In this document: piece after piece, positions 22,614 to 42,248 of the stretch
Layout: the number at the start of each line of letters is the position of its first letter
Position numbering within the stretch: position 1 is the first letter of the stretch
Origin: Candidatus Omnitrophota bacterium
GTDB taxonomy: Bacteria > Omnitrophota > Gorgyraeia > Gygaellales > Profunditerraquicolaceae
Direction of reading: 5' to 3'
Length of the DNA: 64,000 nt
NCBI GenBank assembly: GCA_026387335.1
Contig: JAPLLX010000004.1
Coordinates: 189,485 to 253,484 of the forward strand
The notes under the pieces: generated by a model
The model's input: the letters and a program-made list of their open reading frames with translations, nothing else
Database searches by the model: none
Told to the model about the DNA's origin: nothing
Made by a program: the position numbers and the translations under genes

Positions 22614-23480
22614 TTAAAACCCCTGGAACATCTTACCTTGGGTAAACTGCAGGAATATGGGCCCGCCGATAATAATGCCTATGACCGGCAGGATACAAAA
22701 AATCAAAGGAAGGAGAATTTTAATTGGAGCTTTCATGGCAAAACGCTCGCCGCGGTGAAAACGCTGCAGACGGGCATCTTCAGAAAGCGTCGCAAAAGCT
22801 TCGGCAACCGGGGTCCCCATGCGTTCAGCCTGAACCAAAGTCTGGATAAAAGAGTTCACTTCCTGAATATTTAGCCTTTTGGCCATATCTTTTAAGGCCT
22901 GGGTGCGGGATTTTCCCCACTGGATTTCTTCCAAAACAAAGGCCAACTCTTGGATCATCGGGTTAGTCGAAACTCCCTTTTTAATTAACCATTCTATTGC
23001 CGCGACAAAATCTAGCCCTGCGTCCACGCACAAACTCAATAAATCTATTGTTTCGGGAAGCACCCTGGCAATAGCATATTTACGCTGGCCTATTCTTTTG
23101 TTCAGCCATATTTCCGGCAGCAGATACCCTAAGACAAGCGCTACAACAAATCCTATTGGCCCAATCTTGCCCAAGACAAAAGGGACAAGCATAACTAACG
23201 CCGCGGTAAACAATAATTTGAAATTGATAAACTCCGTCGGAGAAAGCCTTAAATGGGCGGCAGTCAATCTCAATTTAATCTTTGCATCTAAGTTTAATTT
23301 ATCCAGAATAACCGCGGTAAAAGGAATGACGCCGGCCAGAAAACTGGTCTTAAAGCTTTTGCTCCTGGTTGTTTCCGGGGTAAAAGCCGGCTTTGCCCCG
23401 CCTACCCGAGGCATAGACCTTATCCCAATCACTATAAGTACAACCGCAGCCACTAAAAATAAGAAAATCAAAAAAAGCAT
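22614..23480 (-). CDS. tadC: Tad pilus inner-membrane platform protein TadC-like (T2SS F domain)
   Basis: 288 aa, 3 TM regions, GspF-type domain (…LPETIDLLSLCVDAGLDFVAAIEW…TLVQAERMGTPVAEAF…). Confidence 0.75.
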   Translation of the reverse strand: MLFLIFLFLVAAVVLIVIGIRSMPRVGGAKPAFTPETTRSKSFKTSFLAGVIPFTAVILDKLNLDAKIKLRLTAAHLRLSPTEFINFKLLFTAALVMLVPFVLGKIGPIGFVVALVLGYLLPEIWLNKRIGQRKYAIARVLPETIDLLSLCVDAGLDFVAAIEWLIKKGVSTNPMIQELAFVLEEIQWGKSRTQALKDMAKRLNIQEVNSFIQTLVQAERMGTPVAEAFATLSEDARLQRFHRGERFAMKAPIKILLPLIFCILPVIGIIIGGPIFLQFTQGKMFQGF

Positions 23481-23490
23481 CTATTCTCCT

Positions 23491-24366
23491 TTAGACATCT
23501 ATTTTGCTGAATTTATAGATTAAAAATATCCCCACTGCCTGCAAACAAACTGCTGTTATTAAGAGTGTCCGGCCTAACTCCGAGTTAAACATAATATCAA
23601 AGTGATTACGGTTAAAACTTAAAACCCAGGCCACAAAGATAAACGGCAAAGCCGACATAATTATCCCCTGAAGTTTGCCCTGGAGAGTAAGGGTTTTAAT
23701 GCTTTCCTTTAATTTCCGGTTGTCCCGCAGGGTAATGGATAGATGGGCTAAAACCTTGGTTAAATCTCCGCCGGTCTCTTTAGACACAAGAATGGAATTA
23801 ATGATTAAATCCAACTCTTCCAGGTGCATCCTATCATGTAAATGCTTAAGGCTCTCTTCCAGAGGAACTCCGATTTTATTTTCTCTTAAGACCAACCCGA
23901 ATTCCTGAGAAAAAGGCGCCGGGACCTCTTCTACTACTACTTCAAGAGCCTGCATTAAAGAAAGCCCTCCTTTGAGCGAAGAAGAAAGGACCATTATCCC
24001 GTCAGGAAGCTGGTTTTGAAAACGCAAGCGGCGTTGGTTTTTTAAATTCTTGATAATTATTGAAGGAATGATAAAACTGACTAGTCCGGCAAGCAGGGAT
24101 AAACCTAAATTTCTTAAGAAAAAAAATGCCAACATACCGATAACCAGAGGCGTAACTGTATACCACAAGACCAATTTCTGGCGGTTGACCTCAATAAACA
24201 TTTTATCCAGCTGCTTCTCTGCTTCCGCTACCTTTTGAGTATGCAAGATGCTAGCCCGCTGCAGAAATGCAGGAAGAAGCTGGCTGCCGATTAATACCAT
24301 TGCGGCGGCGATTAATCCTAAAATAATCAATAGTTGCATAAACAAATCTCCAGGGACGGTTCTCAA
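23491..24366 (-). CDS. tadB: Tad pilus platform protein TadB-like (T2SS F domain); the true start is probably the ATG at about 24339 (MQLLIILG...)
   Basis: GspF-type domain (…GIMVLSSSLKGGLSLMQALEVV…KETGGDLTKVLAHLS…). The track start is a TTG inside an upstream hairpin. Confidence 0.75.
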   Translation of the reverse strand: MRTVPGDLFMQLLIILGLIAAAMVLIGSQLLPAFLQRASILHTQKVAEAEKQLDKMFIEVNRQKLVLWYTVTPLVIGMLAFFFLRNLGLSLLAGLVSFIIPSIIIKNLKNQRRLRFQNQLPDGIMVLSSSLKGGLSLMQALEVVVEEVPAPFSQEFGLVLRENKIGVPLEESLKHLHDRMHLEELDLIINSILVSKETGGDLTKVLAHLSITLRDNRKLKESIKTLTLQGKLQGIIMSALPFIFVAWVLSFNRNHFDIMFNSELGRTLLITAVCLQAVGIFLIYKFSKIDV

Positions 24367-24420: not shown

Positions 24421-24425
24421 CGTCC

Positions 24426-24587
24426 CTATTTACTGTATTGCCGGCCAAAACCAAAATTATCCCCGGCATCCCGCCATTTTCCGCTTAAAGAGCGCTGGAA
24501 ATAAAGCGCCATTCCGATTAATGCCGCTATGACTATCGCTATTAGAAGCGCATATTCCAGGGATAGAAAACCAGTTTTTTTATTCAT
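24426..24587 (-). CDS. flp: Flp-type pilin (53 aa), MNKKTGFLSLEYALLIAIVIAALIGMALYFQRSLSGKWRDAGDNFGFGRQYSK
   Basis: Unlisted (under 60 aa). G/FLSLEY processing motif with E+5/Y+6, then a hydrophobic helix. ATGAATAA overlap with the stop of the upstream gene. Confidence 0.7.
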   Translation of the reverse strand: MNKKTGFLSLEYALLIAIVIAALIGMALYFQRSLSGKWRDAGDNFGFGRQYSK

Positions 24588-27356: not shown

Positions 27357-27370
27357 TATTTATCCCTTAT

Positions 27371-27754
27371 TTATTGCCCGAAAATATTTAATTTCGGATA
27401 TTTGCTTTGGTCAGACTCATCTACCTGGACTTCGCTTCCGCTATTTCCGGCATTCACCCTTTGGGCTTCGTAGTCCTTTTGCCTTTGCACCAGGCTTCTA
27501 TTCATCCAGAGAAATAACTGCAATGCCCCGAATAATAAGATAAAAACCACTACTAAACTGGCAGCTAATTCCAAAGAGACTTGCGCAGCTTTACCACCCA
27601 GAGTTGCGGGAATCAACTTTTTCCTGCGAAACTTCACTAACAACCTCCTCAGTATTGGTAGCGGCGCTGGTTGAACCATAAGGCTTAGTAATAATTTTTC
27701 TTTTGGTCTGCGTCTTCCAGTCAATATTATCCGTCGTGGTAATGCCTGACGCAT
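27371..27754 (-). CDS. Short TadE-like protein; the true start probably lies internal at about 27610 (the track ORF overlaps the upstream gene)
   Basis: ...AAQVSLELAASLVVVFILLFGALQLFLW. The N-terminal 50 aa of the track ORF overlaps 27591..28619 in another frame. Confidence 0.45.
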   Translation of the reverse strand: MRQALPRRIILTGRRRPKEKLLLSLMVQPAPLPILRRLLVKFRRKKLIPATLGGKAAQVSLELAASLVVVFILLFGALQLFLWMNRSLVQRQKDYEAQRVNAGNSGSEVQVDESDQSKYPKLNIFGQ

Positions 27755-28619
27755 CTTCGGTCTTTCTTAAGGTATTATCGGTTAAGGTCTTCTGTTCATA
27801 ATCCTGCTGTAACCCCATAGCTTTTAAGCCGCCAAAACTAAAGAGCTGCTCTAATGCCGGGAAATTATATGTGTGGTTTACGCTATCTGTTTCCTGATAA
27901 TTGGCGCAATACCAGGGAATGTTCATTGGTTGAGCGCAGGCGCTGCAGCTTGCTGAAGGGTCCCGGCTGCATTCTTTTACGCAGGCATCCGAATCCACAA
28001 TCATCCGGCACTGTTTAACCGCGCTGCCATAATCTACGATTTCTCCGGCGCAGGAATCAATGATACGGATATTTTTACTAGGTTGGGAGCAGATGGTGTC
28101 TTCCGGTTCTCCGGTATTAGGATTAATTGACGTATTCTCTTCTCCTAAACACTCTCCGTCACCTGTATTCCAGACATTTCCGCCGCCGTAGATCACTTGA
28201 TACCTGCCTAAGCTGCCTTCCGGGACATTAGTTTCATCCCTAAACCCGGCAGTGGTATAGGTAAATTCCTTGCCGTTGATATTTACCGTTACCCGGGGTA
28301 ATTCGCTCTCCGTATCAGCGGTTTCGCCTAATCTATAGTCGCGGGCAATGCCTCCGGCTGAGCCGGTCATCGGAGTAACCGAACCTACGCCAAAAGTATC
28401 GGAAGGATTAGGGATATGTTTATCGCTGATTACTATATTAGAAATAGAGGTGCCCGGCTGGTTTACTGCGTGGGTTAAAGACTTCCTAAATGCCTGCTGC
28501 ATCATTTTCTGCTGGTAATTATACCTTAAGCCGTAACTAATAAGAACACCTAAAAGCATAATGATTATTGCCCCAAAAATCGCTACTTCTAATAAAGATT
28601 CTCCCTCTTTTTTCATCAT
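27591..28619 (-). CDS. TadE/TadF-like pseudopilin (342 aa)
   Basis: MMKKEGESLLEVAIFGAIIIMLLGVLISYG... N-terminal pilin-like segment followed by a Cys-containing globular domain. Confidence 0.55.
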   Translation of the reverse strand: MMKKEGESLLEVAIFGAIIIMLLGVLISYGLRYNYQQKMMQQAFRKSLTHAVNQPGTSISNIVISDKHIPNPSDTFGVGSVTPMTGSAGGIARDYRLGETADTESELPRVTVNINGKEFTYTTAGFRDETNVPEGSLGRYQVIYGGGNVWNTGDGECLGEENTSINPNTGEPEDTICSQPSKNIRIIDSCAGEIVDYGSAVKQCRMIVDSDACVKECSRDPSASCSACAQPMNIPWYCANYQETDSVNHTYNFPALEQLFSFGGLKAMGLQQDYEQKTLTDNTLRKTEDASGITTTDNIDWKTQTKRKIITKPYGSTSAATNTEEVVSEVSQEKVDSRNSGW

Positions 28620-28927
28620 TCCTCCGGCGAGATATGCTCGGTTCCGGAACGGTGCTCTTCCTGAGAATTAATATCAGTAGTTGTTGTAGTTTTATATCTA
28701 TCGTCCACCTCAACAGTATTAGTCTGCGTAGTTATATCGCTTTTCTGCGTAATGGTAATATCTGAAACCGTATTTTTAGGTTCATAATGCTGCGCGCTTA
28801 ACTCATCCGCGCCCTGGCGCAACCTTCCCTGAAGGCCCCGGCGGATATAAACCTGCATTGCCAATAACGCGGCAATAATAGCAAATATGACTATGGCGTA
28901 TTCCAGGACACTTTGGGCTTTGCGCAT
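28616..28927 (-). CDS. Flp-type pilin paralog with Thr-rich C-terminal extension
   Basis: MRKAQSVLEYAIVIFAIIAALLAM...TTTTDINSQ. Confidence 0.65.
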   Translation of the reverse strand: MRKAQSVLEYAIVIFAIIAALLAMQVYIRRGLQGRLRQGADELSAQHYEPKNTVSDITITQKSDITTQTNTVEVDDRYKTTTTTDINSQEEHRSGTEHISPEE

Positions 28928-28928
28928 T

Positions 28929-29255
28929 TTATTTCTCCCGGGTGGAAACTGAAGCCGAGCTTCCGCTGCCTGTAGTAACCGCGCTGAAATCGCTACTCTG
29001 GCCGCCGCCCTTTTCTATTCTCTTCCTCTGGGTTATCTCTGACTGCCGGCTCACCGCCGAAGAGGTCTTAATCCCTTTAAGCGGGTCTATTTCTTCAGCA
29101 TCTTTTTGGTTGCCTGCTTCATCTGCTGCTATCTTGACCACGGATTGTATCCCCCGGCGAAAATACATGGCCATACCTGCTAAAGCCAGGGCTACCAAAC
29201 CCAATACTATGGCATATTCTAAAATACTCTGGGCTTTGCGCATTTTAATCCGCAT
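28929..29255 (-). CDS. Flp-type pilin paralog
   Basis: MRKAQSILEYAIVLGLVALALAGMAMYF... Confidence 0.65.
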   Translation of the reverse strand: MRIKMRKAQSILEYAIVLGLVALALAGMAMYFRRGIQSVVKIAADEAGNQKDAEEIDPLKGIKTSSAVSRQSEITQRKRIEKGGGQSSDFSAVTTGSGSSASVSTREK

Positions 29256-29592
29256 CCGGCGCTGAGCCGGTCTTTTCCCATCCGCTACGGGTAGTTGTCT
29301 GGTCTATGGATGTATCCGGAAAGCCTGTAGCAGAGGACCCGCTTTTAACCTCAATAGTATCTGACTCCCGGTAATAAGGATCATATTGTTGTTTGATCTT
29401 CGTAAAATTAGGAACACCTTTATCTATAGCAGTATTTTTTATCTCGGAGATCAAATAATCTGCGCCCCCTTTATATCTAGCCTGGAGGCTGCGTTGGATA
29501 TAGATACGCACGGTCATAATTATCGCTACTACCGCAGCCAAACACAAAGCAACTTCCGTTAAACTCTGCCCCCGAGTTTTTACTCTGCGCAT
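29245..29592 (-). CDS. Flp-type pilin paralog
   Basis: ...RGQSLTEVALCLAAVVAIIMTV... Confidence 0.55.
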   Translation of the reverse strand: MRRVKTRGQSLTEVALCLAAVVAIIMTVRIYIQRSLQARYKGGADYLISEIKNTAIDKGVPNFTKIKQQYDPYYRESDTIEVKSGSSATGFPDTSIDQTTTRSGWEKTGSAPDAD

Positions 29593-29598
29593 TTTTTA

Positions 29599-29910
29599 CT
29601 ATTTCGCTTCAGTATTCCAGGTTTCGTTTTCTGACCTGGTCACTGTTTCCCCTTGGGATACCTGGCTGGTAGTGCTTCCGGTAGAGGTATCTCGTGTCTC
29701 AGTAGTTACAGTAGTGCCGCCACCCACTGTCGTACGGGTAGAATTAAAATTTGAAGCATCAAACTGCTTGCCGATCTGGTCGCTAGACTCCCTTAGCCTT
29801 CCCTGGACCCCTCTTTTCATATAAGCATTTATTGCCAATAAGGCGCCGATTACTGCCGCGATAACCAAGGCGTATTCCAAGGTGCTTTGGGCTCTTTTTC
29901 CCCTAAACAT
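29599..29910 (-). CDS. Flp-type pilin paralog with Thr/Ser/Gly-rich C-terminal region
   Basis: MFRGKRAQSTLEYALVIAAVIGALLAINAY...GGGTTVTTETRDTSTGSTTSQ. Confidence 0.65.
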   Translation of the reverse strand: MFRGKRAQSTLEYALVIAAVIGALLAINAYMKRGVQGRLRESSDQIGKQFDASNFNSTRTTVGGGTTVTTETRDTSTGSTTSQVSQGETVTRSENETWNTEAK

Positions 29911-29934
29911 TGTTCACCCCCTGCTCGCTAAATT

Positions 29935-30321
29935 TTATTTACTTGGGCTTATGTCCTCTTCCGCGCCGGTGATCTGCTGGGTGCCGGTGCGCTTAATGGT
30001 TGCGCCGCTGACTTCTTTTTTACCGCCGGTGCTGGAAGCTGTTTCTGTTTCTGTCCCTTCGCTGGACTCAGTATTAAATTGATATTCGCCTTTTCTGATA
30101 TAGTATGGCTCATATTGTTTTTCCGTGCCGAATAAAGTCGCGGTTTTAGCTTCGGCCTCTGTTCCCTGCAAGGCTACAGTAGCCGCATTGTCTGAGCCGG
30201 ACTTTATCTTAGCCTGCATGGACCTGCGCATATAAATCTGCATGGCGCTGAAAACACCGATAACCACCGCGATTAAAAGCGCGTATTCCATAGTACTCTG
30301 GGCTCTTTTCCCCCTTAACAT
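29935..30321 (-). CDS. Flp-type pilin paralog
   Basis: MLRGKRAQSTMEYALLIAVVIGVFSAMQIYMRR... Confidence 0.65.
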   Translation of the reverse strand: MLRGKRAQSTMEYALLIAVVIGVFSAMQIYMRRSMQAKIKSGSDNAATVALQGTEAEAKTATLFGTEKQYEPYYIRKGEYQFNTESSEGTETETASSTGGKKEVSGATIKRTGTQQITGAEEDISPSK

Positions 30322-30343
30322 CTTTCACCTCCCTTAAAAACTA

Positions 30344-30580
30344 TCACTTCGCTTGGGTAAAATTACTGCTGGCGTCGGTGATCTTGGTCGCCGAAGAATC
30401 CATCACCTTTTCTACCGCCGGTTTTAATTTAGCGTAAGCGAAAACAATGATTGCCCCGACAATAGCCGCAAATACCGCGATATATTCTAATGTGCTTTGG
30501 GCCTTATTTCTCCGCGACATCTTTCTACCTCCTTGATTATTTATTGGTAACAACCGGTTGAGCATTGATCTGGTCTTCAA
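30344..30580 (-). CDS. Flp-type pilin paralog; the true start is probably the internal M (MSRRNKAQSTLEY...) at about 30520, which follows a GGAGG
   Basis: ...NKAQSTLEYIAVFAAIVGAIIVFAY... The track ORF overlaps the next pilin gene. Confidence 0.6.
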   Translation of the reverse strand: MKTRSMLNRLLPINNQGGRKMSRRNKAQSTLEYIAVFAAIVGAIIVFAYAKLKPAVEKVMDSSATKITDASSNFTQAK

Positions 30581-30695
30581 TTATTTTAAGGTTGGCCTGG
30601 GCCGAGCGCTGCACATAGATGCTCATCGCCGCCAGTGCCGCCACCACTACGGAAATAATCAATGCGTATTCTAAAATACTCTGCGCCTTTTTCAT
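30537..30695 (-). CDS. flp: Flp-type pilin (52 aa), MKKAQSILEYALIISVVVAALAAMSIYVQRSAQANLKIIEDQINAQPVVTNK; candidate major pilin
   Basis: Unlisted small ORF found by manual translation. Canonical short Flp architecture. Confidence 0.7.
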   Translation of the reverse strand: MKKAQSILEYALIISVVVAALAAMSIYVQRSAQANLKIIEDQINAQPVVTNK

Positions 30696-30711
30696 CTCTA
30701 TACCTTCTCGC

Positions 30712-30885
30712 TTATTTAGTTATCTGCGTCGCTGCTTTCTGGAAAAGGCCTTCTTTTTCACTTGAGCCCTGGATCGCCTCTTTAACCTTAGGCAAAAAAG
30801 TGCTGAAAGATAAAATCGTTAAACACGCTATTATGGCGAATAAAATGAAGTATTCTACCGCAGCCTGCCCCGTAGCCATACGCAT
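30712..30885 (-). CDS. flp: Flp-type pilin (57 aa), MRMATGQAAVEYFILFAIIACLTILSFSTFLPKVKEAIQGSSEKEGLFQKAATQITK
   Basis: Unlisted. G/QAAVEY motif. RBS ggaggtatcaggATG, partly within a cctgata/tatcagg hairpin. Confidence 0.6.
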   Translation of the reverse strand: MRMATGQAAVEYFILFAIIACLTILSFSTFLPKVKEAIQGSSEKEGLFQKAATQITK

Positions 30886-31002
30886 CCTGATACCTCCATA
30901 TCAGGGTTAACCCCTGCCGTCATTATTTAAGCGTTATATTTAAATAATATCACCTTGCCCAACAAGCGTCAAGACTATTAAAACCTGCACGGAAAACGCT
31001 TT

Positions 31003-32883
31003 CTATTCAGTAGTCAGATATAACTTGTGCCCGCTGGATAAAACAACCTCTTTCTCGTTTATCCGGCGGCATAAATAGCTTAAGTCTTTGTCAAAAGCAT
31101 ACGCCGGAGGTAGGACAAATTTCATTAAACAGCTTCTTTTCTTTCGGGTTGGTTCCGCGATCAAATTATAGAACCGTTCTCTGGTGGCTGTAAACTCCTT
31201 ATCTTCATATCCTGAGGGCAATAGATGCCAGCGCACATAGGCATCTATTGCCGCCAGGTAGCTGGCGAACAAGTCTTTAACCGTTGAAACCTGAGCCAGC
31301 CCTAAGTTTATATTTTCCGCGCTAAAATAACGCTGGGAATTGGCAGTATAAGTAAAAAGCTCTATTTTACGGCTGTAATCCTGAAAGGCCTCTTCCAGAT
31401 TAGGCCAATGATTAAAATATAGAGCAACCAGCTCTTCGGCCTTTTTAGTCCCGACGCTAAAATTGCTTAATAAGACCAAGCGGGTTTTTTCAGTAAGGCT
31501 TGTTTTTAGAACGCAGCCGTTAAGGACTATCTGTTTAGCTTTAGTGGGTTGCCTTAACTCCATCTCTATATCGGCGATATAAAGATCTTTATTCTGCTCC
31601 TCCAGGCGAAAGAGTCTAAACTCGCCTAGATTCTTGACTCTGCGGCATTCGGTAAATTGCCAGGGCCAGACGCCGAAAACAAAAAAACGTTTTTTAGCCT
31701 GATTTACCGGCAAAACCTCTAACTCTTCAAATTTGTTTCCCGAAATCACCAGGTTAGTGATCGCATTCCCTCGACCATCCAGCGCTTCCAAAAGATTAAA
31801 GAATTCCTGCGAAGGCATATCATATCCGGGGGCGTTAAAAATTACCAGAGGATAATCTTCGTTGAAATATTGGTTGATATACTTTTTTAGGTTATGGATA
31901 GGAGAGGCAAAATCATACGGGATGTGCGGGGAAGACCAGACCGAATACATTGAGGCATCCAGATAGAGATTGGCTCCGTCGGAGAGGATGACCTTGACGC
32001 ATCTGGCCTCTTGTAAGCTTGAGGCGATGATCCGGGAAATATCCAGATTAATGACTTTGATATTCTCTATCTTTTCTAAATAACCGGATAATTTATCTAT
32101 AAATGCTTTTTCGGCTTTTTCCTGAAACAAGGGCAGATAAATGAGGTTTTCCACTAAATCTTCCAGATTGCCTGGCGCATCAGGAAGCCGGCTTTTAATT
32201 GCTGCGGCAATGAGTTTGCTTGCGCCTATAATATAGTCTGCCGCCTCCAGCAATATAATTCCGCTGTCTTCTATTTGATGAAATTTTTCAACATTGGCTA
32301 CTGGATGGGCTGTTGCTTCTACTTGCGCTTTCCTCTCTTCCTCTTCCCGAGCCTTGCTTAATTCTTCTTCTTTAGCTTTTCGCTCTGCTTCTTCCCGGGA
32401 TTCTTTAGCTAATCTTTCCTCTTCAGCAATCCTCGCCCATTTCTCTTCTTCAATCTTTCTGGCTACTTCTTCCTCGGATTTGAGTTTTTCTTCTTGCGCC
32501 AAAAGCTCTTCTTGTTCTTTTTTGACTACTTCCTCTCTAGCCTTTTTTTCAGTTTCTTCTTTTACTTTCCTCTCTTCTTCTTCCCGAGCTTTTTCCTCTT
32601 CTTCCTGGCCTGTTCTCTCTACTTGCCGGACAGATGCATCCTCAAGCAGAATAGGTAAATTAGGCATAGCAATATGGCGCCTCTTCTTTTTAGGAGTCCT
32701 ACCTACGGGCGCGCTTAACCCGGCTTCTTTTATAATCATATTGATGCTGGATTTAGATAGTTCTATCTTGAAATTATCCAAAACAAGCGCGGTCAACTTA
32801 CGGCAGCTTAAGGAAGGGCTATTGTTCTTTTGCTCTAGAATAAAATCTCTTACTTCCGGTTTAATTTTGTAAATTACACCCAT
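31003..32883 (-). CDS. Hypothetical protein: N-terminal transposase-like HTH, long E/K/R-rich coiled-coil segment, large C-terminal domain of unknown function
   Basis: MGVIYKIKPEVRDFILEQKNNSPSLSCRKLTALVLDNFKIELSKSSINMIIKEAGL (HTH), then about 120 aa of EEERKAKEE repeats, then roughly 400 aa with no family recognisable by eye. Confidence 0.5.
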   Translation of the reverse strand: MGVIYKIKPEVRDFILEQKNNSPSLSCRKLTALVLDNFKIELSKSSINMIIKEAGLSAPVGRTPKKKRRHIAMPNLPILLEDASVRQVERTGQEEEEKAREEEERKVKEETEKKAREEVVKKEQEELLAQEEKLKSEEEVARKIEEEKWARIAEEERLAKESREEAERKAKEEELSKAREEEERKAQVEATAHPVANVEKFHQIEDSGIILLEAADYIIGASKLIAAAIKSRLPDAPGNLEDLVENLIYLPLFQEKAEKAFIDKLSGYLEKIENIKVINLDISRIIASSLQEARCVKVILSDGANLYLDASMYSVWSSPHIPYDFASPIHNLKKYINQYFNEDYPLVIFNAPGYDMPSQEFFNLLEALDGRGNAITNLVISGNKFEELEVLPVNQAKKRFFVFGVWPWQFTECRRVKNLGEFRLFRLEEQNKDLYIADIEMELRQPTKAKQIVLNGCVLKTSLTEKTRLVLLSNFSVGTKKAEELVALYFNHWPNLEEAFQDYSRKIELFTYTANSQRYFSAENINLGLAQVSTVKDLFASYLAAIDAYVRWHLLPSGYEDKEFTATRERFYNLIAEPTRKKRSCLMKFVLPPAYAFDKDLSYLCRRINEKEVVLSSGHKLYLTTE

Positions 32884-32888
32884 ACAAC

Positions 32889-32945
32889 CCCCAGATTGGA
32901 CATTTCCCTATACGAATAATATAGTTTATGAACCAGATTATGTCA
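32889..32945 (-). promoter_or_regulatory. Sigma70-like promoter (TTGACA-17-TATATT) for the 31003..32883 gene, with a TGGACA motif copy between -10 and the RBS
   Basis: Minus-strand read: TTGACAtaatctggttcataaacTATATTattcgtatagggaaatgtccaatctgggggttgtATG. Confidence 0.5.
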
Positions 32946-32950
32946 AGTTA

Positions 32951-32997
32951 AATAGGGACAGCGACCGTTTTTTAAACGGTCGCTGTCCCTATTAAAG
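32951..32997. repeat. Hairpin repeat family copy 1 (AATAGGGACAGCGACCGTTT-loop-AAACGGTCGCTGTCCCTATT); terminator-like, downstream of the DUF192 gene
   Basis: Perfect 20-bp stem seen in sequence. Copies 2 (33345-33410) and 3 (43186-43248) share the same stem sequence. Confidence 0.7.
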
Positions 32998-32998
32998 G

Positions 32999-33340
32999 TT
33001 ACTTTAAAATTAGTTGGTCGCCGAGGCCGGTGGAAGTGAATTTTATTGTGCCAAGGGGAAGCTCGATAACAAACCTGCTTTGCGCAGAGATAGGGCTTAA
33101 ACGAAACGGCATAAGCTTAGGAATCGCCTTAATTACTGTATTGTTTTTACTTACAAACAGGAGATCGATCGGAAAACGCATAAAACAGGTGTGCACTGAA
33201 TTACAGGGGTTCAGCACAAGGGCCTGGCCATAATGAAATTCTCTCTTGCCCAATAAACCCTTAGCCCGTTTTAAGAAAGTATCAGCCATAATGGCGTTGT
33301 CAGCCAATAGGGTTTTGCGCGTCGCGTTAAATATTTTCAT
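32999..33340 (-). CDS. DUF192 (COG1430) family protein
   Basis: ...GLLGKREFHYGQALVLNPCNSVHTCFMRFPIDLLFV..., characteristic of DUF192. Confidence 0.65.
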   Translation of the reverse strand: MKIFNATRKTLLADNAIMADTFLKRAKGLLGKREFHYGQALVLNPCNSVHTCFMRFPIDLLFVSKNNTVIKAIPKLMPFRLSPISAQSRFVIELPLGTIKFTSTGLGDQLILK

Positions 33341-33344
33341 TTTT

Positions 33345-33410
33345 ATTAGGGACAGCGACCATTTTTCCCAGTTAACCTTAGAAGAAAAATGGTCGCTGTC
33401 CCTATTTATC
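33345..33410. repeat. Hairpin repeat family copy 2 (TAGGGACAGCGACCATTTTT...AAAAATGGTCGCTGTCCCTATT, loop about 27 nt)
   Basis: Seen in sequence between the cpaEF stop and the DUF192 start. Its translation yields the DSDHF...EKWSLSLFI artefact ORFs. Confidence 0.7.
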
Positions 33411-35570
33411 CTAAGGAGCCTGGAAAATATTATCTGAAAGCTTGATGCCTTTTATTTTGATTTCTTCAATTACGGAAGGTTTATATCCGCTAGCCTGGAA
33501 GTTACCTAATACATTGCCTTGGGAGTCAATACCGGTCTGCTTAAAAACAAAGATGTCGCTTAAATTTATATGCAGTTCGTCCTTCATCCCGGTTACCTCG
33601 GTTACCTGTATAACTTTTCTTGAGCCGTCGGATAATCTGGCAGTATGAATAATCAGGTCTATTGCCGAAGCGATCATCTCCCGTATCGCTCGCATCGGCA
33701 GCTCTACCCCACCCATTAGAATCATCGAATCAAGCCGGGATAAGACATCTTGCGTGGAATTAGAGTGGATTGTGGTCATTGAACCGTCATGCCCGGTATT
33801 CATCGCCTGAAGCATATCCAGCGCTTCAATGCCGCGGCATTCGCCTATGATTATACGGTCAGGCCGCATCCTGAGCGTATTCCTGAAAAGGTCTCTTATG
33901 CTTACGCCTCCCCTGCCTTCAATATTGGGAGAACGGGACTCCAGCCTGATCCAATGGCGCTGGTCAAGTTTTAATTCCGCCGCGTCTTCTATCGTGATAA
34001 TGCGTTCGCTCTCGGGGATAAACCCGGAAAGGACGTTTAATACCGTAGTTTTTCCACTTCCTGTCCCGCCGGAGACAATTATATTTTTTCTGCAAAGGAC
34101 GCAGGCCCGGATAAATTCCGCCATATCGGAACTTAAGGCCTTAAGCTGGATTAAATCTTCAATCTTAAATTTTTCTTTCCGGAATTTCCTTATTGTCAGG
34201 CTTGGGCCGGTTAAGGCCAAAGGCGGGATTATGGCGTTGACGCGGGAACCGTCGGGAAGGCGGGCGTCCACCATCGGCACAGATTCATCTACCCTTTTAC
34301 CGATGGGAGCGATGATTCTTTCAATAATGGTTTTGACCTGATCATTGGAAATAAACTTTTTACTGGTTAACTCTATCTTACCCTTTCTCTCAATATATAT
34401 TTCATCTTTATTATTGACCATGATATCGGTAATATCCGGCATCATTAACAGGTCTTCCAACGGGCCAAACCCCAAGGCTTCATCCAGGATCTCCTTCACC
34501 AGTTTTCTGCGCACCTCCGGGGAAGAAATGAAACTTCCTGCTTCTTCTACTAAAAAGCGGCTGACCATAGCCTCGGCCCTGCTCCTTAATCCTTGCGCTT
34601 TTTTAGTATCGCTAAAAACTTTTAAATCCAGCCTCTTAATGTTCAGTTCATCTATAAGCCGGCTATGTATTTTGCTCTTAAGAATTATTATATCGTCTGC
34701 GCGCTCATCTTTGGCGGCCAGCTCTTCAATCAAAGGCTCGGTTAAGCCTTGCTCTTCCCATAATTTTGCCGGTTTTTCCAAGGCCAGCTGCTGCACGCGT
34801 AACTGGTCTATCTCCTGATTTTGGGTAAAGATATTCTTATCCTTGACCAACTGTTCGCTAAGTTTATTTATTGCCTGGCTAAATCTTGAGCGGGGAGCAT
34901 CGACTATCACGGGTATACCCCGGTTTACGGCTAGCCCGACGGCTTTGCCTTCGGAAGGGATCTGATAAAGAATATCGCAAGCTAAGTTTACCCTTATCTC
35001 CTGCCAGCTGATACTAGAGATAGATTCTGCCCTATTCAGGATTATCTTCACCATAGACAAAGGAAATTGCAGAAACTGCAGCGTATCTATGGTCCATTCG
35101 GCCTGGTATATGGAAAGTATGTCGGGGGTGACTACTAAAATAATGAGGTTGGCCTGGTTTAAGGTAGCGATGAGGACATCGCTAAAACTCTTTCCGGCAT
35201 CAACAACTATATAATCATAATCTTTTTCCAGTAAGCTAAACGCCTCTTTGACATTCTCTGGCTTAAGGTGTGGGGCCTGGGGCGGCTTGGTTATTCCGCA
35301 TAATAAATCAACCCCCGCATAACTGTGGCTCAAAAAATCATTCTTATTTGCTCCCGACGGATCTTTCCTATAAGACTGGATAAGGTCAACCATATTCTTA
35401 TCCGGTTTAATATCCAGCATGCGCGCCATATCGCCGACGGCCTGCAGATCCAAATCCACCAAGCAAACTTTTTGCGCCTGTTCTTTGGCTAAAGAAACAG
35501 CGAGGTTAGTGGCGATCAGGGTCTTGCCTACTCCGCCTTTAGTGCTGAATATTACTATTTTCCTGGACAT
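33411..35570 (-). CDS. cpaF: Fused CpaE/TadZ-like (ParA/MinD-type) domain and CpaF/TadA secretion ATPase
   Basis: N-terminal KIVIFSTKGGVGKTLIATNLAVSLA (deviant Walker A of the ParA/CpaE family). C-terminal ...IVSGGTGSGKTTVLNVL...GECRGIEALDMLQAMNTGHDGSMTTIHSNS (VirB11/CpaF ATPase). Confidence 0.8.
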   Translation of the reverse strand: MSRKIVIFSTKGGVGKTLIATNLAVSLAKEQAQKVCLVDLDLQAVGDMARMLDIKPDKNMVDLIQSYRKDPSGANKNDFLSHSYAGVDLLCGITKPPQAPHLKPENVKEAFSLLEKDYDYIVVDAGKSFSDVLIATLNQANLIILVVTPDILSIYQAEWTIDTLQFLQFPLSMVKIILNRAESISSISWQEIRVNLACDILYQIPSEGKAVGLAVNRGIPVIVDAPRSRFSQAINKLSEQLVKDKNIFTQNQEIDQLRVQQLALEKPAKLWEEQGLTEPLIEELAAKDERADDIIILKSKIHSRLIDELNIKRLDLKVFSDTKKAQGLRSRAEAMVSRFLVEEAGSFISSPEVRRKLVKEILDEALGFGPLEDLLMMPDITDIMVNNKDEIYIERKGKIELTSKKFISNDQVKTIIERIIAPIGKRVDESVPMVDARLPDGSRVNAIIPPLALTGPSLTIRKFRKEKFKIEDLIQLKALSSDMAEFIRACVLCRKNIIVSGGTGSGKTTVLNVLSGFIPESERIITIEDAAELKLDQRHWIRLESRSPNIEGRGGVSIRDLFRNTLRMRPDRIIIGECRGIEALDMLQAMNTGHDGSMTTIHSNSTQDVLSRLDSMILMGGVELPMRAIREMIASAIDLIIHTARLSDGSRKVIQVTEVTGMKDELHINLSDIFVFKQTGIDSQGNVLGNFQASGYKPSVIEEIKIKGIKLSDNIFQAP

Positions 35571-35574
35571 TTTT

Positions 35575-37233
35575 TTATTTTAACTGAAAGGTTACCGGAA
35601 CATCGATCCAAAGCTCCCTCTCTTCTATAGAGGCAGGGAAGGGAGGGTAAGAACTTATCTCCTTGGCCATAGCAACTGCCTGGTCATTCAGAAGCTGATA
35701 ATCCGAAGGCTCTTTGATAGCGACATCCAAAAGTTCACCGGTATATAAAACATGCAGCCTTAATTTTACTGTCCCCTGATAACCGCTATCTTTGATCTCC
35801 TGAGGATAAGTAAAATTGGCCAATATGCGTTCTTGGATAATCTTAGCGTATTGCGTGGTGGGATCAACCGGCTGTTCTTCCTGCGCAGGGGCTTTGGTTG
35901 TTTCCTGCGGAATATTTTGGGGCTGCGTTTTAGGCGCCTTATCCTTTTCCAGAGAGGCTATCGTCGGTGTAAGGATAATAAAGAGTTCGGTATCCACTTT
36001 TTGGCCCGTACCTCCGCCTGTTTTAGTAACTTTTTGCCTAAAGAAAGCGCCTAAAATAGGGACATCGCTTAAGAAGGGGGTCCGGGTGACTGTTTCTTCT
36101 TTCTTTTTCCGGATTAAACCTCCGATAACCATACTTTGTCCGCTATCCAGAAAAAGTTCGGTGGAAGCGCTGCGCTTGGACAAAGGATAAGCCTGGGCAG
36201 TAGTAGTGGTAGTGCTAGCGCTGGTTGTCCCGATTGTCTGGACTGTCCCTATATCGCTGACTTCTACATTCACGCCCAATTTTATCCGTTTATCGTCGGT
36301 TAAGACGGGTTTTATCTTCAGTTTAATCCCATACTCTTTATATTCAACGCTGGTTCCCTGATTACCTGTAGTCGCGGCTATTTGAGTAGTAAATATCGGC
36401 TGTTCTCCTCCGACGATCAATTCCGCTTCTTTGCCGCTCTGGCAGGCGATACGCGGACGGGAAAGAAGCTGGGCCTTACCTTCCTGAATCAAAGCATCCA
36501 GCTTAAGCGTAAAAGGCGTGGCTGTTCCGCCTGAGGAGCGCATAATATCAGCTACCTTAAATACCTTGCCCCAGGTTGTCCCGGCTGCGGCAAGCGCGGG
36601 AGAGCCGATTTCCGTAAAAGTAATTGAGCCGGGCCAGGTAAAGCCTAAGGTATTGGTCGCGTCTTTGTTTAGTTCCATGATCTGCACATCTATATCTAAT
36701 AATGCTTCTTCCTCTTTGACCTGGACTAAATCTACCAGCTTGTCTTTTAAACCGGCTAAAACAGTAAAGATCCTTTCCCTATCCTGTGATGTCTTAACCC
36801 TGCCTAAAATAAGGATCTTCCCTTCATCTTCTTCCGCCTGAGAATAAACCTCAGGGAGATCGAGTTTCCCCAACAGATTATCTGCCCGCATTTTTAACGC
36901 GTTAACATCTTCGGCTAATACTTTTATCTTATATGACTGTTCGCCAAAATTATCCCAATATACCAAAGTAGTGGTCCCCGGAGATTTAGGAGTTAAGGTT
37001 ATACCTTGTTTAGTTACATTAGCAACGTCAACTATGGCGGGGTTACCGATAACAATACGGCTGGGGTTGTTTGTAGACATAGTTCTAAATCCGCCCATAT
37101 ATATTCTGATGGTTTCGGAGGTATTATCTACAGCAGTATCTAAAGTATAAATATTCCCCGGCTGAATAACGCAAGCCGCGCCGGCTAAAAAAAGGAACAA
37201 AAATATCTTCTTCATTATCCTTCCTTCTCTCAT
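35575..37233 (-). CDS. cpaC: Secretin (RcpA/CpaC-like) with C-terminal TonB-C-like domain
   Basis: Secretin core ...SGQSMVIGGLIRKKKEETVTRTPFLSDVPILGAFFRQK...ELFIILTP... C-terminal 90 aa ...GYQGTVKLRLHVLYTGELLDVAIKEPSDYQLLNDQAVAMAKEISSYPPFP... resembles the TonB C-terminal fold. Confidence 0.7.
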   Translation of the reverse strand: MREGRIMKKIFLFLFLAGAACVIQPGNIYTLDTAVDNTSETIRIYMGGFRTMSTNNPSRIVIGNPAIVDVANVTKQGITLTPKSPGTTTLVYWDNFGEQSYKIKVLAEDVNALKMRADNLLGKLDLPEVYSQAEEDEGKILILGRVKTSQDRERIFTVLAGLKDKLVDLVQVKEEEALLDIDVQIMELNKDATNTLGFTWPGSITFTEIGSPALAAAGTTWGKVFKVADIMRSSGGTATPFTLKLDALIQEGKAQLLSRPRIACQSGKEAELIVGGEQPIFTTQIAATTGNQGTSVEYKEYGIKLKIKPVLTDDKRIKLGVNVEVSDIGTVQTIGTTSASTTTTTAQAYPLSKRSASTELFLDSGQSMVIGGLIRKKKEETVTRTPFLSDVPILGAFFRQKVTKTGGGTGQKVDTELFIILTPTIASLEKDKAPKTQPQNIPQETTKAPAQEEQPVDPTTQYAKIIQERILANFTYPQEIKDSGYQGTVKLRLHVLYTGELLDVAIKEPSDYQLLNDQAVAMAKEISSYPPFPASIEERELWIDVPVTFQLK

Positions 37234-38132
37234 TTAGATAAAGGCATCTTTTCTTTGCTTAAGCCTCTGTATATTTCAACATACTCTGTAGCCGGTGCGT
37301 CTTTGTCCTGGAACTTAGCTAATTCATTCTGGGCCGGCATAACATATCTGAATAATGTCTCCCAACTGGCGGGTTGGGTTGCCTGCATTTGAGAATCCGC
37401 CGGTGAACGCAGGGTGAGCCTCAACTTACCCTGTTCCTGGACAAAAGCAATGAGATTGGCTTCTTGAGGACCAAGGGCAAGGGTGATCAGCGGAGAATTT
37501 TCGCTTCTTCTCTCCGTCTCTTTCTTCCCGGCGCTGGCTGCGGAGATCGAACCTGTATCCTGTCCGACGGCCAAAACCAGGACATTCTGGAATAAAGGCA
37601 TCACCGCCATCTGACTTACCTGTTTACCGTCGGCAGTCTGCACCGGCACAGGGACAAGCGCCATTACATCAACATAATCTCCGGGTTTGATCATTCCGCC
37701 CAGTGCCGAAATATTATCTACTGATATGGTGATCGCCCTTTTGCCGACTGGCGTGCCTTCGGCTAAACCGCCTAATTGCCTGGGTTGGACTAATTTGCTT
37801 AAAGATATCTGTTCGCCTTTGGATATGGCTACAACCGCGACCATCCCTAAAATCCTATCTGCCGAAGAAACTGCCTGCGGCTGGAGATATTGGTCGGGGA
37901 TAATAATTGTCTCCAGGCTTTCCGCCGCGATAGCTGCGCCGCGGGGGATGTCTTTATTGGCTATCAATACCTTGACTTCGTGCTTGGATATATTTTTTTC
38001 CAGGCTGGCTATCTTTTTTTTGGACTCATCAATCACCTGCTGGCGCTGCTGGTCAATATAGGCCTTAGTCATAAATACGGCCATTAAAGCCAGGACAACA
38101 CCGATTATTATGATGATCTTTTGCCTTTGCAT
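37230..38132 (-). CDS. cpaB: Flp pilus assembly protein CpaB/RcpC-like (SAF domain)
   Basis: N-terminal TM anchor; ...VKVLIANKDIPRGAAIAAESLETIIIPDQY...; positioned next to the secretin. Confidence 0.65.
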   Translation of the reverse strand: MQRQKIIIIIGVVLALMAVFMTKAYIDQQRQQVIDESKKKIASLEKNISKHEVKVLIANKDIPRGAAIAAESLETIIIPDQYLQPQAVSSADRILGMVAVVAISKGEQISLSKLVQPRQLGGLAEGTPVGKRAITISVDNISALGGMIKPGDYVDVMALVPVPVQTADGKQVSQMAVMPLFQNVLVLAVGQDTGSISAASAGKKETERRSENSPLITLALGPQEANLIAFVQEQGKLRLTLRSPADSQMQATQPASWETLFRYVMPAQNELAKFQDKDAPATEYVEIYRGLSKEKMPLSK

Positions 38133-39038
38133 TTACTTTATCTCTCCCTCGTAAAATTCCAATTTTGAGTCGCGGGAAAGTTTCCCCAGCAGATCTTCAA
38201 TTTTTTTCTGTTGCTTTAAAAACGTCAGGCCTCTTTTGATATCATCCCACATTTCATTAAGGGATTTTTGTTTTCCGCCGCGCTTGACTTCCAGCTTGAC
38301 GATACAATAACCTTCAGGGCTTTTAAAAATACTGCTGATTTTACCTGTCTCCAACGAATCGGAAAAAGCTACGGCATCAAATTGAGCGGACTTTTGGCCC
38401 TTTTTAATAAACCCTAAATCCCCCGCGTCTTTGGCGCTGGCGGATTTAGAGCGATCTTTGGCTAAAGTAGCAAAATCTGTTCCCTGTAAAAGCAGGATCA
38501 GGATATCTTTGGCATCCTGCTCAGAACTAACCACTATTTCGCGTAACTGCCTCTCTTCGGGCTCCTTAAGCTGATCTTTATAATTATTATAATAATCCTC
38601 TATTTCTTTGGAACTTACCTCTACTTTTTCCGCTTCCTTACGGACCAGTTCCATCACTAAAAGATCCTGTTTGGTTTTTTCCAGCGCCTGAACAATTTCT
38701 TCGTTGCGTTCCAGGCCCCTGTTTAAAGCTTCCTGATAAAGAAGTGTGCGGCGGACCATTTCATTCTTAAGGTATTCTATTTTTTTATCCCGGGTGGTGA
38801 TCTTGGCTTCCGGCTTATCGTCGGGAACCACGGAATTGTAAGCTTCTATTTCCTTATTTAAATCATCCAAGGTTATAGGTTGATTATTGACTTTGGCTAC
38901 CACTGTCCCCTTAACCGAGGCGGTAGGAATAAAGGCCTCTTTAAGTTTAGGCTTAGCGAGACCGATTTTATCGCAGCCTATTAAAAGCGCTAAAATAAAA
39001 ATGCAGATTGACGGCAGAACTATCCGGTATTTCATCAC
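38133..39038 (-). CDS. SurA-like periplasmic chaperone / parvulin-type peptidyl-prolyl isomerase
   Basis: Lipoprotein-like N-terminus (LLIGCDK). PpiC domain ...DLGFIKKGQKSAQFDAVAFSDSLETGKISSIFKSPEGYCIVKLE... Confidence 0.65.
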   Translation of the reverse strand: MMKYRIVLPSICIFILALLIGCDKIGLAKPKLKEAFIPTASVKGTVVAKVNNQPITLDDLNKEIEAYNSVVPDDKPEAKITTRDKKIEYLKNEMVRRTLLYQEALNRGLERNEEIVQALEKTKQDLLVMELVRKEAEKVEVSSKEIEDYYNNYKDQLKEPEERQLREIVVSSEQDAKDILILLLQGTDFATLAKDRSKSASAKDAGDLGFIKKGQKSAQFDAVAFSDSLETGKISSIFKSPEGYCIVKLEVKRGGKQKSLNEMWDDIKRGLTFLKQQKKIEDLLGKLSRDSKLEFYEGEIK

Positions 39039-39045
39039 CCCTCCT

Positions 39046-39288
39046 CTATTCTTTTTTTATTTCGTTAATTATACGGATCAATAAATCAGCGATCTTAGCA
39101 ATAAGGAAAAGAAAAAAGAAGAAAAAGGTGTACACTACCAAGACTATAGCGCCCATCCAACGGGAACTGCCGGGTGCCGCGCCAAAAATAATGGACAAAC
39201 CCCCTAAAATTCCGAAAAATAAAAAAATCCAGGCAGCGACTTTCACCACTGTACTGGAAGCTTTCAAAAAACCTAAATGTTCACGCAT
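39046..39288 (-). CDS. Small two-TM membrane protein (80 aa)
   Basis: Hydrophobic ORF, first gene of the Tad-locus transcription unit. Confidence 0.4.
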   Translation of the reverse strand: MREHLGFLKASSTVVKVAAWIFLFFGILGGLSIIFGAAPGSSRWMGAIVLVVYTFFFFFLFLIAKIADLLIRIINEIKKE

Positions 39289-39527: not shown

Positions 39528-40751
39528 TTGACCCTGGATTTAAAAGCGCTTATAATACAAAACATGCAAGCAGGAGTTGGCGTAAGCACGCAACAGGACC
39601 ACCTAAAAGCTGTTCGGGAAGCTGTCGGAAAAGCCAGGCTGAGCTTGAATGCGGGAAAGGTGGATTTTGCGCTTCTGTTTACTACGGGAGAATTTAGCCA
39701 CCCCCTGGTATTACAGACAATCGCCGGCATAATCGGGCCTGTCCCGCTGCTGGGCGCAAGCAGCCCAACAATAATATCTAGTCAGGGCCCCTTAAAACAT
39801 GGGCTGGTTATTATCCTGTTTAGCGTTACCGAGGGCGTTTATTTTAACGCTGGCTTAGTCAAGGATATCGCCGCAAAAAGCACCTTAACCGCAGGGATTG
39901 AACTGGGAGAAAAACTTCTTTACGGCTGCAAAAATGTCCGCCGTAACCTAAGCGTTATATTTTCGAATACTGAAGCGGCCCAGAGTTCAGGACTTATCAC
40001 GGGGCTACAGGAAAAATTGGGAAAAAGTTTTCCTTTAATCGGGGCGTCTATACCCAGAAATGTCGACCATCAAGAAAACTCGCTTTATTTTAATTCGGAA
40101 ATATTAAATAACGCCTCCTGCGGCATACTCTGGGGAGGAAAACTCAACTTTAATTTAGGTATTGAGCATGGCTGGCAACCGCTGGGTAAACCCCGTTATG
40201 TCACCAAGGCAACGGCAGACGTTGTGCATGAAATAGACGGCCAGGCAGCGGTCGATTTATATAAAGAATATTTTGCCAAAGAAATCCCCGAGTTAAAAAG
40301 AGAACTAAAGCGCATTTCAGTATTTTATCCGCTGGGTATAAGTATTTCCGAGAAAAAAGAGTACCTCTTAAGAAGCGTTGTAGCAATAAGAAACGACGGT
40401 TCCCTGGTTTTTCAGGGAGAAGTCCCACAGGGGAGCGCGGTAAGGCTAATGATCAGCTCCAAGGAATCCTGTTTAGCCAGCGCGCGCAAAGCGGCTGAAG
40501 CAGCGGTAAAGAATATGGAGGGCAAAAAAATAAAATTTGCGCTTGTATTAGACTCTTTATCCAGGTACACTCTCTTGGGCAGACAGGCAACTCAAGAGAT
40601 TAAAATTGTCCGGGAGATTCTTGGAGAGAATGTGCCGATGGCCGGCCTATACACCTCTGCGGAAGAGGCGCCCCTGGGCTTTATTAGTTACTCTTTGGGG
40701 AAAACCTATTTTCATAATAATTCCATTGCTGTATTAACTATCGCCAACTAA
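39528..40751 (+). CDS. FIST-domain sensory protein (FIST_N + FIST_C)
   Basis: ...VDFALLFTTGEFS... and ...MAGLYTSAEEAPLGF..., characteristic of FIST. The true start is probably the MQAGVG... at about 39564. Confidence 0.65.
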   Translation: MTLDLKALIIQNMQAGVGVSTQQDHLKAVREAVGKARLSLNAGKVDFALLFTTGEFSHPLVLQTIAGIIGPVPLLGASSPTIISSQGPLKHGLVIILFSVTEGVYFNAGLVKDIAAKSTLTAGIELGEKLLYGCKNVRRNLSVIFSNTEAAQSSGLITGLQEKLGKSFPLIGASIPRNVDHQENSLYFNSEILNNASCGILWGGKLNFNLGIEHGWQPLGKPRYVTKATADVVHEIDGQAAVDLYKEYFAKEIPELKRELKRISVFYPLGISISEKKEYLLRSVVAIRNDGSLVFQGEVPQGSAVRLMISSKESCLASARKAAEAAVKNMEGKKIKFALVLDSLSRYTLLGRQATQEIKIVREILGENVPMAGLYTSAEEAPLGFISYSLGKTYFHNNSIAVLTIAN

Positions 40752-40771
40752 GGAATTTTATTTTAATAAAT

Positions 40772-42244: not shown

Positions 42245-42248
42245 ATAT

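Follow-up and report, generated by a model that had tools for sequence, protein, structure and literature searches.

The Tad pilus machine of Omnitrophota is built with two fusion proteins, a TadZ::TadA ATPase and a secretin that ends in a TonB-like domain. We analysed a 64,000-nucleotide stretch of a Candidatus Omnitrophota genome (GenBank assembly GCA_026387335.1, contig JAPLLX010000004.1, positions 189,485 to 253,484), below called the window, in which a first-pass annotation made from the sequence had pointed to positions 33411–37233. These comprise exactly two adjacent open reading frames (ORFs), both on the reverse strand (Table 1). The downstream ORF encodes a 719-residue ATPase in which a TadZ (CpaE)-type domain precedes the TadA (CpaF) motor; the upstream ORF encodes a Tad secretin of the RcpA/CpaC type, the C-terminal TonB-like domain of which we call the arm. 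Both fusions together are a signature of the Omnitrophota Tad machine and not an oddity of the window: they are the norm in this lineage and co-occur in 74 of 74 informative loci. The Omnitrophota are uncultured, mostly ultra-small bacteria that have been inferred to be predators or parasites, the Tad pilus being a main genomic argument for this (PMC10066038).

TadZ and TadA in one polypeptide

Residues 2–260 of the ATPase are matched by the Pfam families AAA_31, CbiA and ParA, with E values of about 1e-14 and scores that are all above the gathering score. The deviant Walker A motif KGGVGKT is found at residues 11–17 (35520–35540), and the best match of the N-terminal domain in the PDB is the ParA family ATPase 3ea0 (E 1e-19), which ranks ahead of MinD. 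Across the homologues, K11, G12, G13, G15, D39 and D124 never vary, and conservation reaches at least 90% at K16 and T17; the catalytic motifs of the ParA fold are conserved in the fused domain. The first-pass annotation had described a ParA/MinD-type domain with a KGGVGKT motif in front of the motor, and the matches from Pfam, NCBIfam and the PDB bear this out.

The identity of this domain is indicated by its relatives on plasmids. Three of the best tblastn matches were inspected (H1, H5 and H26, in Paraburkholderia, Pseudarthrobacter and Sinorhizobium); all three are genes of Tad loci that are annotated as "AAA family ATPase" and immediately precede cpaF, and it is with a C-terminal stretch of about 240 residues that they align to the N-terminal domain. 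Because these relatives adjoin cpaF and match with their C-terminal part, the N-terminal domain can be assigned as the ATPase domain of TadZ/CpaE without the receiver-like part. The receiver-like domain is indeed absent: the protein begins at the first strand of the P-loop domain, whereas canonical TadZ has some 130 additional residues at its N-terminus. A separate tadZ gene was not found in the operon.

The full-length AlphaFold2 model shows a folded region (1–251), a disordered linker (252–292) and then the helical bundle of CpaF and the two domains of the motor. The linker displays a motif with the consensus FWQxQGLxEPL, in which W271 is invariant and G275 and E278 are at least 90% conserved. 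A short conserved helix is predicted around W271, and Caulobacter CpaE has been reported to have a C-terminal amphipathic membrane-binding helix; the W271 motif could be a membrane-binding or partner-binding element. In the motor, residues 366–647 match T2SSE (E 2.4e-64), the Walker A motif GGTGSGKTT is located at residues 501–509, and the NCBIfam model for TadA (TIGR03819) scores 339 bits, slightly below its strict cutoff of 373.

The fusion is explained by a lost stop codon between the neighbouring genes tadZ and tadA, because the nearest plasmid relatives of the N-terminal domain are encoded directly upstream of cpaF. When plasmids were searched by tblastn with the full fusion, tadZ and tadA were two separate genes at every annotated place where both domains were covered. 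Some of these canonical pairs gave single high-scoring pieces, and in the one that we checked both genes lie in one frame across a stop codon; since such an in-frame pair mimics a fusion in tblastn, annotations and not coverage alone were used for the assignment.

A Tad secretin with a TonB-like arm

The N-terminus of the secretin consists of a signal peptide that is followed by the secretin domains, without a TonB-type membrane anchor. The true start may be Met7, because the closest homologue begins there, with no effect on the finding. That the secretin could be a lipoprotein was considered and rejected, the cysteine in the signal peptide not being conserved in the homologues. Between pore domain and arm lies a hypervariable linker, which among 144 cluster representatives (see below) has a median length of 30 residues (range 4–346) and a composition rich in E, A, K and P.

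The arm occupies the extreme C-terminus. Residues 473–551 match TonB_C with an E value of 9.7e-14 and 52 bits against a cutoff of 24.6, and TIGR01352 (tonB_Cterm), for which the cutoff is 27.1, gives 40.7 bits; a YPPFP-type motif is invariant. The last 101 residues, modelled with AlphaFold2 (26 homologues), show an alpha-alpha-beta-beta-alpha-beta topology with a predicted local distance difference test (pLDDT) score of 85. A Foldseek search of the PDB with this model gave C-terminal domains of TonB, TolA, HasB or FusB for 26 of the top 27 entries, the sole other one being a DUF5043 protein at rank 26; the best match is the C-terminal domain of Helicobacter pylori TonB (6sly; TM-score 0.74, E 3e-5). 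The arm has a TonB/TolA-type C-terminal fold, which is predicted and not solved. The TonB C-terminal-like domain that the first-pass annotation had read from the sequence is thus confirmed by a Pfam score above the gathering score and by Foldseek; a domain scan, which had been named as a potential refutation of both domain assignments, upheld the ParA-like N-terminal part and TonB_C alike.

Despite its label "TonB family protein" at NCBI, the secretin should not be filed as a TonB protein, because the N-terminal inner-membrane anchor is absent and exbB and exbD were not found among the scanned ORFs of the window; nor was a gene for TonB. Our literature search for a secretin with a TonB_C domain gave unrelated papers only, and we found no paper that describes this architecture.

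Conservation and distribution of the fusions

A HMMER scan of 1.84 billion cluster representatives was carried out with the secretin, and the 150 best relatives, one per 50%-identity cluster and 28–65% identical, were inspected. A C-terminal TonB_C-like domain is present in 144 of them, the six without it being mostly fragments, and about 12 carry two such domains in tandem. The best 120 clusters at 90% identity retain the fused length and the domain set for each of the two proteins, with identities to the query of 67–99% for the ATPase and 51–96% for the secretin. Relatives with two TonB_C domains or with linkers of up to 346 residues are found, for example, at L069 1592–3520, L084 8001–10394 and L085 2584–5721 and reach lengths of up to 1,091 residues.

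The neighbourhood of the secretin gene, about 10 kb on either side, was compared in 80 species-level genomes, 66 of which are labelled Omnitrophota or Omnitrophica. In all 74 loci whose contig continues, the gene for the secretin with TonB_C is followed by a TadZ-linker-TadA ORF, usually after a gap of a few bases; complete ORFs of this kind encode 704–744 residues, and the gene order both upstream and downstream is conserved across the related loci. Even the divergent relatives L084 and L085 (30–31% identity; 797 and 1045 residues) retain the order rotamase, RcpC, secretin::TonB_C, TadZA. The comparison with Tad loci in related metagenome-assembled genomes (MAGs), which the first-pass annotation had proposed, therefore finds the fusions conserved. 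That annotation had also called both arrangements uncommon. This holds in comparison with model Tad systems, since tadZ and tadA are separate on plasmids and the Bdellovibrio fusion discussed below has been termed "atypical"; it does not hold within Omnitrophota.

Sequence conservation differs sharply between domains and linkers. Among 28 homologues, mean pairwise identity is 0.56 for the secretin's N-terminal domain and 0.71 for its pore domain, and the fused domains, with 0.58 for TonB_C and 0.64 for TadZ, are about as conserved; the motor reaches 0.73–0.88. The linkers have values of 0.20 in the secretin (over residues 426–461) and 0.44 in the ATPase. Functional domains that sit on flexible tethers would be expected to show just such a pattern.

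Named homologues of both proteins come from Candidatus Omnitrophota MAGs. Few of the 20 divergent secretin representatives are named, and the informative names are those of Omnitrophota, including Candidatus Aceula lacicola. One divergent representative is labelled as an archaeon yet has the same bacterial operon, and because of this operon it is probably mis-binned. The secretin::TonB_C architecture is likely restricted to the phylum Omnitrophota. Contigs with the operon also carry the labels "uncultured Planctomycetales", "Patescibacteria group", "Margulisiibacteriota" or archaeon (L008, L009, L076 and L077; protein P0389); these odd labels are probably placeholders or the result of mis-binning. 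L085 also has genes of a type IVa pilus (9627–12721), namely those for PilM, PilO and another secretin, this one with an STN domain; a few genes separate them from the Tad core genes, which lie upstream.

The Tad locus and the remainder of the window

The locus represents the form that the Tad (Flp, type IVc) pilus machine takes in Omnitrophota: it encodes a motor of the TadA/CpaF type, two platform proteins of the T2SSF type, an RcpA/CpaC secretin with a pilus N-domain and CpaB/RcpC. Read along the reverse strand, it begins with a small membrane protein and a PpiC/SurA-like protein; CpaB, the secretin and the fusion ATPase come next, followed by a DUF192 protein, a 626-residue protein and six putative Flp-like pilins, and the series ends with larger pilin-like proteins (one of them TadG-like), TadB and TadC (Table 1). 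No peptidase A24 match, as expected of a prepilin peptidase (TadV/CpaA), was obtained among the scanned ORFs of the Tad locus (22614–39288), and the gene could be elsewhere.

Table 1. Features of the Tad locus and of its two fusion proteins (window positions; residue numbers refer to the encoded protein)
Feature	Position	Strand	Basis
80-residue protein, two hydrophobic stretches; its gene opens the conserved operon	39046..39288	-	ORF sequence
PpiC-type peptidyl-prolyl isomerase with SurA-like N-domain	38133..39038	-	Pfam Rotamase_2, Rotamase, SurA_N_3
CpaB/RcpC periplasmic alignment protein	37230..38132	-	TIGR03177, 177 bits (cutoff 71); Pfam RcpC, SAF
Tad secretin (RcpA/CpaC type) with TonB-like arm, whole ORF, 552 residues	35575..37233	-	Pfam, NCBIfam
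Secretin: N-terminal domain T2SS-T3SS_pil_N, residues 39-105	36919..37119	-	Pfam, E 2.5e-13
Secretin: pore domain, residues 247-425	35959..36495	-	Pfam Secretin, E 1.1e-39
Secretin: hypervariable linker, residues 426-472	35818..35958	-	Alignment
Secretin: TonB C-terminal domain, residues 473-552, extreme C-terminus	35578..35817	-	Pfam TonB_C
TadZ::TadA fusion ATPase, whole ORF, 719 residues	33411..35570	-	Pfam, NCBIfam, AlphaFold2
Fusion ATPase: TadZ/CpaE-type ParA/MinD ATPase domain, residues 1-251	34818..35570	-	Pfam AAA_31, CbiA, ParA
Fusion ATPase: disordered linker, residues 252-292 (about 40 residues)	34695..34817	-	AlphaFold2, pLDDT about 30; short helix 268-272
Fusion ATPase: TadA/CpaF motor with helical bundle (293-366), N-terminal domain and C-terminal ATPase domain	33414..34694	-	Pfam, NCBIfam, AlphaFold2
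DUF192 protein	32999..33340	-	Pfam DUF192, E 3e-14
626-residue protein with Glu/Lys-rich central stretch, between DUF192 and pilin genes	31003..32883	-	ORF sequence
Six tandem small genes, putative Flp-like pilins	28616..30580	-	N-termini [KR]x[AG]QSxLEYA, then hydrophobic helix
TadG-like large pilin-like protein, 734 residues	25152..27356	-	Pfam Tad (TadE/G-like), E 2.6e-7, residues 21-64
TadB and TadC inner-membrane platform proteins	22614..24366 (23491-24366; 22614-23480)	-	Pfam T2SSF, E 4e-18 and 4e-16

Upstream of the two fusion genes, CpaB/RcpC is found in 76 of the 80 loci, and directly upstream of cpaB the PpiC/SurA-like isomerase in 73. A cysteine in xxGC[D/E] context follows the signal sequence in all homologue sequences of the isomerase that we read; a regular expression for this cysteine counted 50 of 73, variants such as LFGC having escaped it. 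The isomerase is predicted to be a lipoprotein and a PrsA/SurA-like foldase, perhaps one dedicated to the secretin. The 80-residue protein has no significant Pfam match, and its homologues are encoded upstream and on the same strand in 52 of 80 loci.

Downstream, the gene next to that of the fusion ATPase encodes a DUF192 protein in 60 of 80 loci, as it does in the divergent locus L084. The 626-residue protein remained without a match in the Pfam scan; homologues occur in 55 of 80 loci, in 50 of them at the same relative position. The six tandem pilin-like ORFs encode 78–128 residues and have sub-threshold matches to Class_IIIsignal only, Flp_Fap being unmatched; their homologues are present in 19–47 of 80 loci.

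Genes for the accessory proteins of other Tad secretins were also looked for. Neither TadD-, CpaD- or CpaI-like genes, by Pfam, nor a tetratricopeptide repeat (TPR) protein of the TadD type were found in the window locus, in L084 or in L085, although a CpaI-like gene could escape Pfam. The porin of the OprB type encoded nearby was considered as a partner for the arm and rejected, being present in only 1 of 80 loci.

Positions 39528–43184 on the forward strand, which are transcribed divergently from the Tad operon, encode a protein with a FIST domain, a histidine kinase and a GGDEF-domain response regulator. Because this trio recurs at the same position in 34–37 of the 80 related loci, control of the pilus by c-di-GMP is suggested. 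At the other end of the locus, a Fic/DOC-family ORF and a small helix-turn-helix ORF (21836–22536, reverse strand) lie between tadC and the OprB-type porin gene; the pair resembles a toxin-antitoxin system and is missing from the related loci. The remainder of the window consists of housekeeping genes and one giant ORF. The latter (1–19551, reverse strand) encodes at least 6,517 residues from a methionine at 19551, runs off the start of the window and resembles the giant ORFs reported for Omnitrophota. Elsewhere, an ORF with a LAGLIDADG-like domain (59554–60588, reverse strand) sits beside a NifU-like gene, and its other neighbour matches the family of the methylene-tetrahydrofolate reductase C-terminal domain only.

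Comparison with other Tad systems

The closest counterpart of the ATPase is found in Bdellovibrio bacteriovorus, for which a preprint of July 2026 describes an "atypical TadZA fusion ATPase" that could not be deleted, depletion of which together with TadB blocks prey invasion, and the TadZ-plus-linker region of which binds the polarity hub RomR (bioRxiv 10.64898/2026.07.08.737194). Both proteins comprise, in one polypeptide, a ParA/MinD-like TadZ without a receiver domain (ARD), a flexible linker and the TadA motor; in both cases the prepilin peptidase gene is missing from the locus and the organism is predatory or host-dependent. They differ in that Omnitrophota keep the second lysine of the Walker A motif (KGGVGKT) in at least 90% of sequences, whereas the consensus given in the preprint for TadZ is K/RGGXGXS/T. 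TonB is nowhere mentioned in the preprint. Seymour et al. had found that TadB and TadC of Omnitrophota group with those of Bdellovibrionales and had reported Tad loci and giant ORFs for the phylum, mentioning neither fusion (PMC10066038). The TadZ–TadA fusion is thus already known from Bdellovibrio, and the novelty lies mainly in the secretin arm.

Canonical CpaE/TadZ and CpaF/TadA, as in Caulobacter, Aggregatibacter and plasmid Tad loci, have the same domain types in the same order, with tadZ directly upstream. They are, however, separate proteins, and their TadZ has a receiver-like N-terminal domain of about 130 residues, whereas in Omnitrophota this domain is absent and the ratio of the two would be fixed at 1:1. 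In Caulobacter, six CpaE dimers ring and contact the CpaF hexamer in situ.

With regard to the secretin, the last four residues of Pseudomonas aeruginosa RcpA bind the pilotin TadD, a TPR lipoprotein (PMC10499894). Both secretins have an N-terminal beta-sandwich domain and a barrel, and in P. aeruginosa, too, the C-terminus is a site of accessory interactions, but that of Omnitrophota ends in a linker and a folded TonB_C domain and its operon contains no TadD-like gene. Caulobacter CpaC is braced by the OmpA-like CpaD, while CpaI bridges CpaC to the wall and to CpaB (PMC13170226). The secretin has to be held at the wall and at the alignment complex, and this is the role that we propose for the arm; in Caulobacter it is fulfilled by separate proteins of other folds, in Omnitrophota a TonB-type domain is part of the secretin itself. 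With the C-terminal domains of TonB and TolA, the arm shares the fold, the hallmark YP motif and the position at the extreme C-terminus after a flexible spacer. In contrast to these, it is tethered to the pore in the outer membrane and so hangs from the other side of the periplasm, and it is not linked to ExbBD or TolQR.

A proposed mode of action and its alternatives

We propose that the Omnitrophota machine is a Tad machine in which two accessory functions that are separate in model systems have been hard-wired onto core parts, the arm anchoring the secretin and the fused TadZ coupling placement to the motor; we put the probability of this reading at roughly 55%. Each motor hexamer would carry six TadZ domains at a fixed 1:1 ratio. 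By ATP-dependent dimerisation these would pair beside the ring, which would couple placement or regulation directly to the motor; the same mode of action is proposed for Bdellovibrio TadZA. In the outer membrane, some 13–14 secretin subunits would each hang one arm into the periplasm. Pairing of beta-strands, as is typical of TonB and TolA domains, would let the arms attach the pore either to a strand of a partner or to the cell wall. They would in this way assume the part in anchoring or assembly that other systems give to the pilotin TadD or to CpaD and CpaI, and would have no energy-transducing role. We infer that the arm is a built-in periplasmic adaptor for anchoring or assembly, with a putative partner.

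Several points weigh against this proposal. The docking partner of the arm is only putative; tadD and other accessory genes could lie beyond the flanks of about 10 kb around the secretin gene; and the conserved lipoprotein foldase encoded upstream might alone fill the role of a pilotin. The ratio and the pairing of TadZ and TadA are taken from other systems, and Caulobacter has 12 CpaE per hexamer rather than six. Finally, the likeness to Bdellovibrio TadZA is one of architecture.

Other readings were weighed against the same evidence. The arms might act as staples inside the ring, pairing mutually or with the neighbour's barrel and so stabilising the multimer without an external partner, a role that can be likened to that of the S-domain of type II secretins. 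Isolated C-terminal fragments of TonB form domain-swapped dimers, and the cluster representatives with tandem TonB_C domains are also consistent with mutual pairing. The extreme C-terminus is, moreover, the position of the S-domains in other secretins (PMC10499894, introduction). The linker, however, being hypervariable and anywhere between 4 and 346 residues long, fits a reaching tether better than a fixed staple, and we consider stapling unlikely. Much less probable still is an energised secretin, in which the arms would link the pore to a motor of the ExbBD or TolQR type or to TonB-dependent receptors and thereby make pore opening or pilus dynamics energy-coupled. The bona fide TonB/TolA-type fold would suit such a role, as would the enrichment of E, K and P in the linker, to which the spacer of TonB is somewhat similar in composition. 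Yet the N-terminus offers a signal peptide and secretin domains instead of a membrane anchor that contacts ExbBD, exbB, exbD, tolQ and tolR were not found among the scanned ORFs of the window or the annotated genes of L084 and L085, and the pilus already has its own ATPase. The first-pass annotation had raised a distinct mode of assembly or energisation; for an outer-membrane secretin without TonB anchor and without ExbB, ExbD or TonB among the scanned ORFs, energisation has no support and the assembly or anchoring half is the better supported one. The TonB-like arm probably anchors the pore rather than powering it.

For the ATPase, it is equally hard to credit that the fused N-terminal domain is a MinD or a ParA rather than TadZ/CpaE. 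Its best NCBIfam matches are MinD models, with 87 and 78 bits that remain under their cutoffs, many homologues have been named MinD by JGI, and Eubacterium rectale TadZ is not among the PDB matches at E <= 0.001. Against this stand the plasmid relatives H1, H5 and H26, all of which are immediately upstream of cpaF and are matched over their C-terminal ATPase domain, as well as an operon that has no tadZ gene besides the fusion. An artefactual origin of the fusions, through assembly, a frameshift or gene calling, can practically be dismissed: this reading is refuted because the same uninterrupted ORFs are conserved across independent assemblies, 74 for the ATPase and 80 for the secretin, and in hundreds of metagenomic protein clusters.

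Within the anchoring role that we favour for the arm, a more specific possibility, which we put forward only tentatively, is that the handshake between TonB and TonB box has been put to a new, structural use as a connector, in which 13–28 arms, arranged as a ring, capture a short strand on a specific envelope protein.

Implications

A phylum-wide signature architecture provides a precise marker for finding this machine and two testable hypotheses on its function. The finding also corrects the database label "TonB family protein" that NCBI gives to Omnitrophota secretins. The fused TadZ::TadA links Omnitrophota to Bdellovibrio, which needs the same fusion for prey invasion and whose motor is connected by it to a polarity hub. 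The TonB-like arm, for its part, points to a new way of anchoring and assembling secretins. If the connector proposed above is real, it would allow the pilus pore to be assembled without a pilotin and to be braced under the force of retraction in a tiny predatory or parasitic cell that grips its host.

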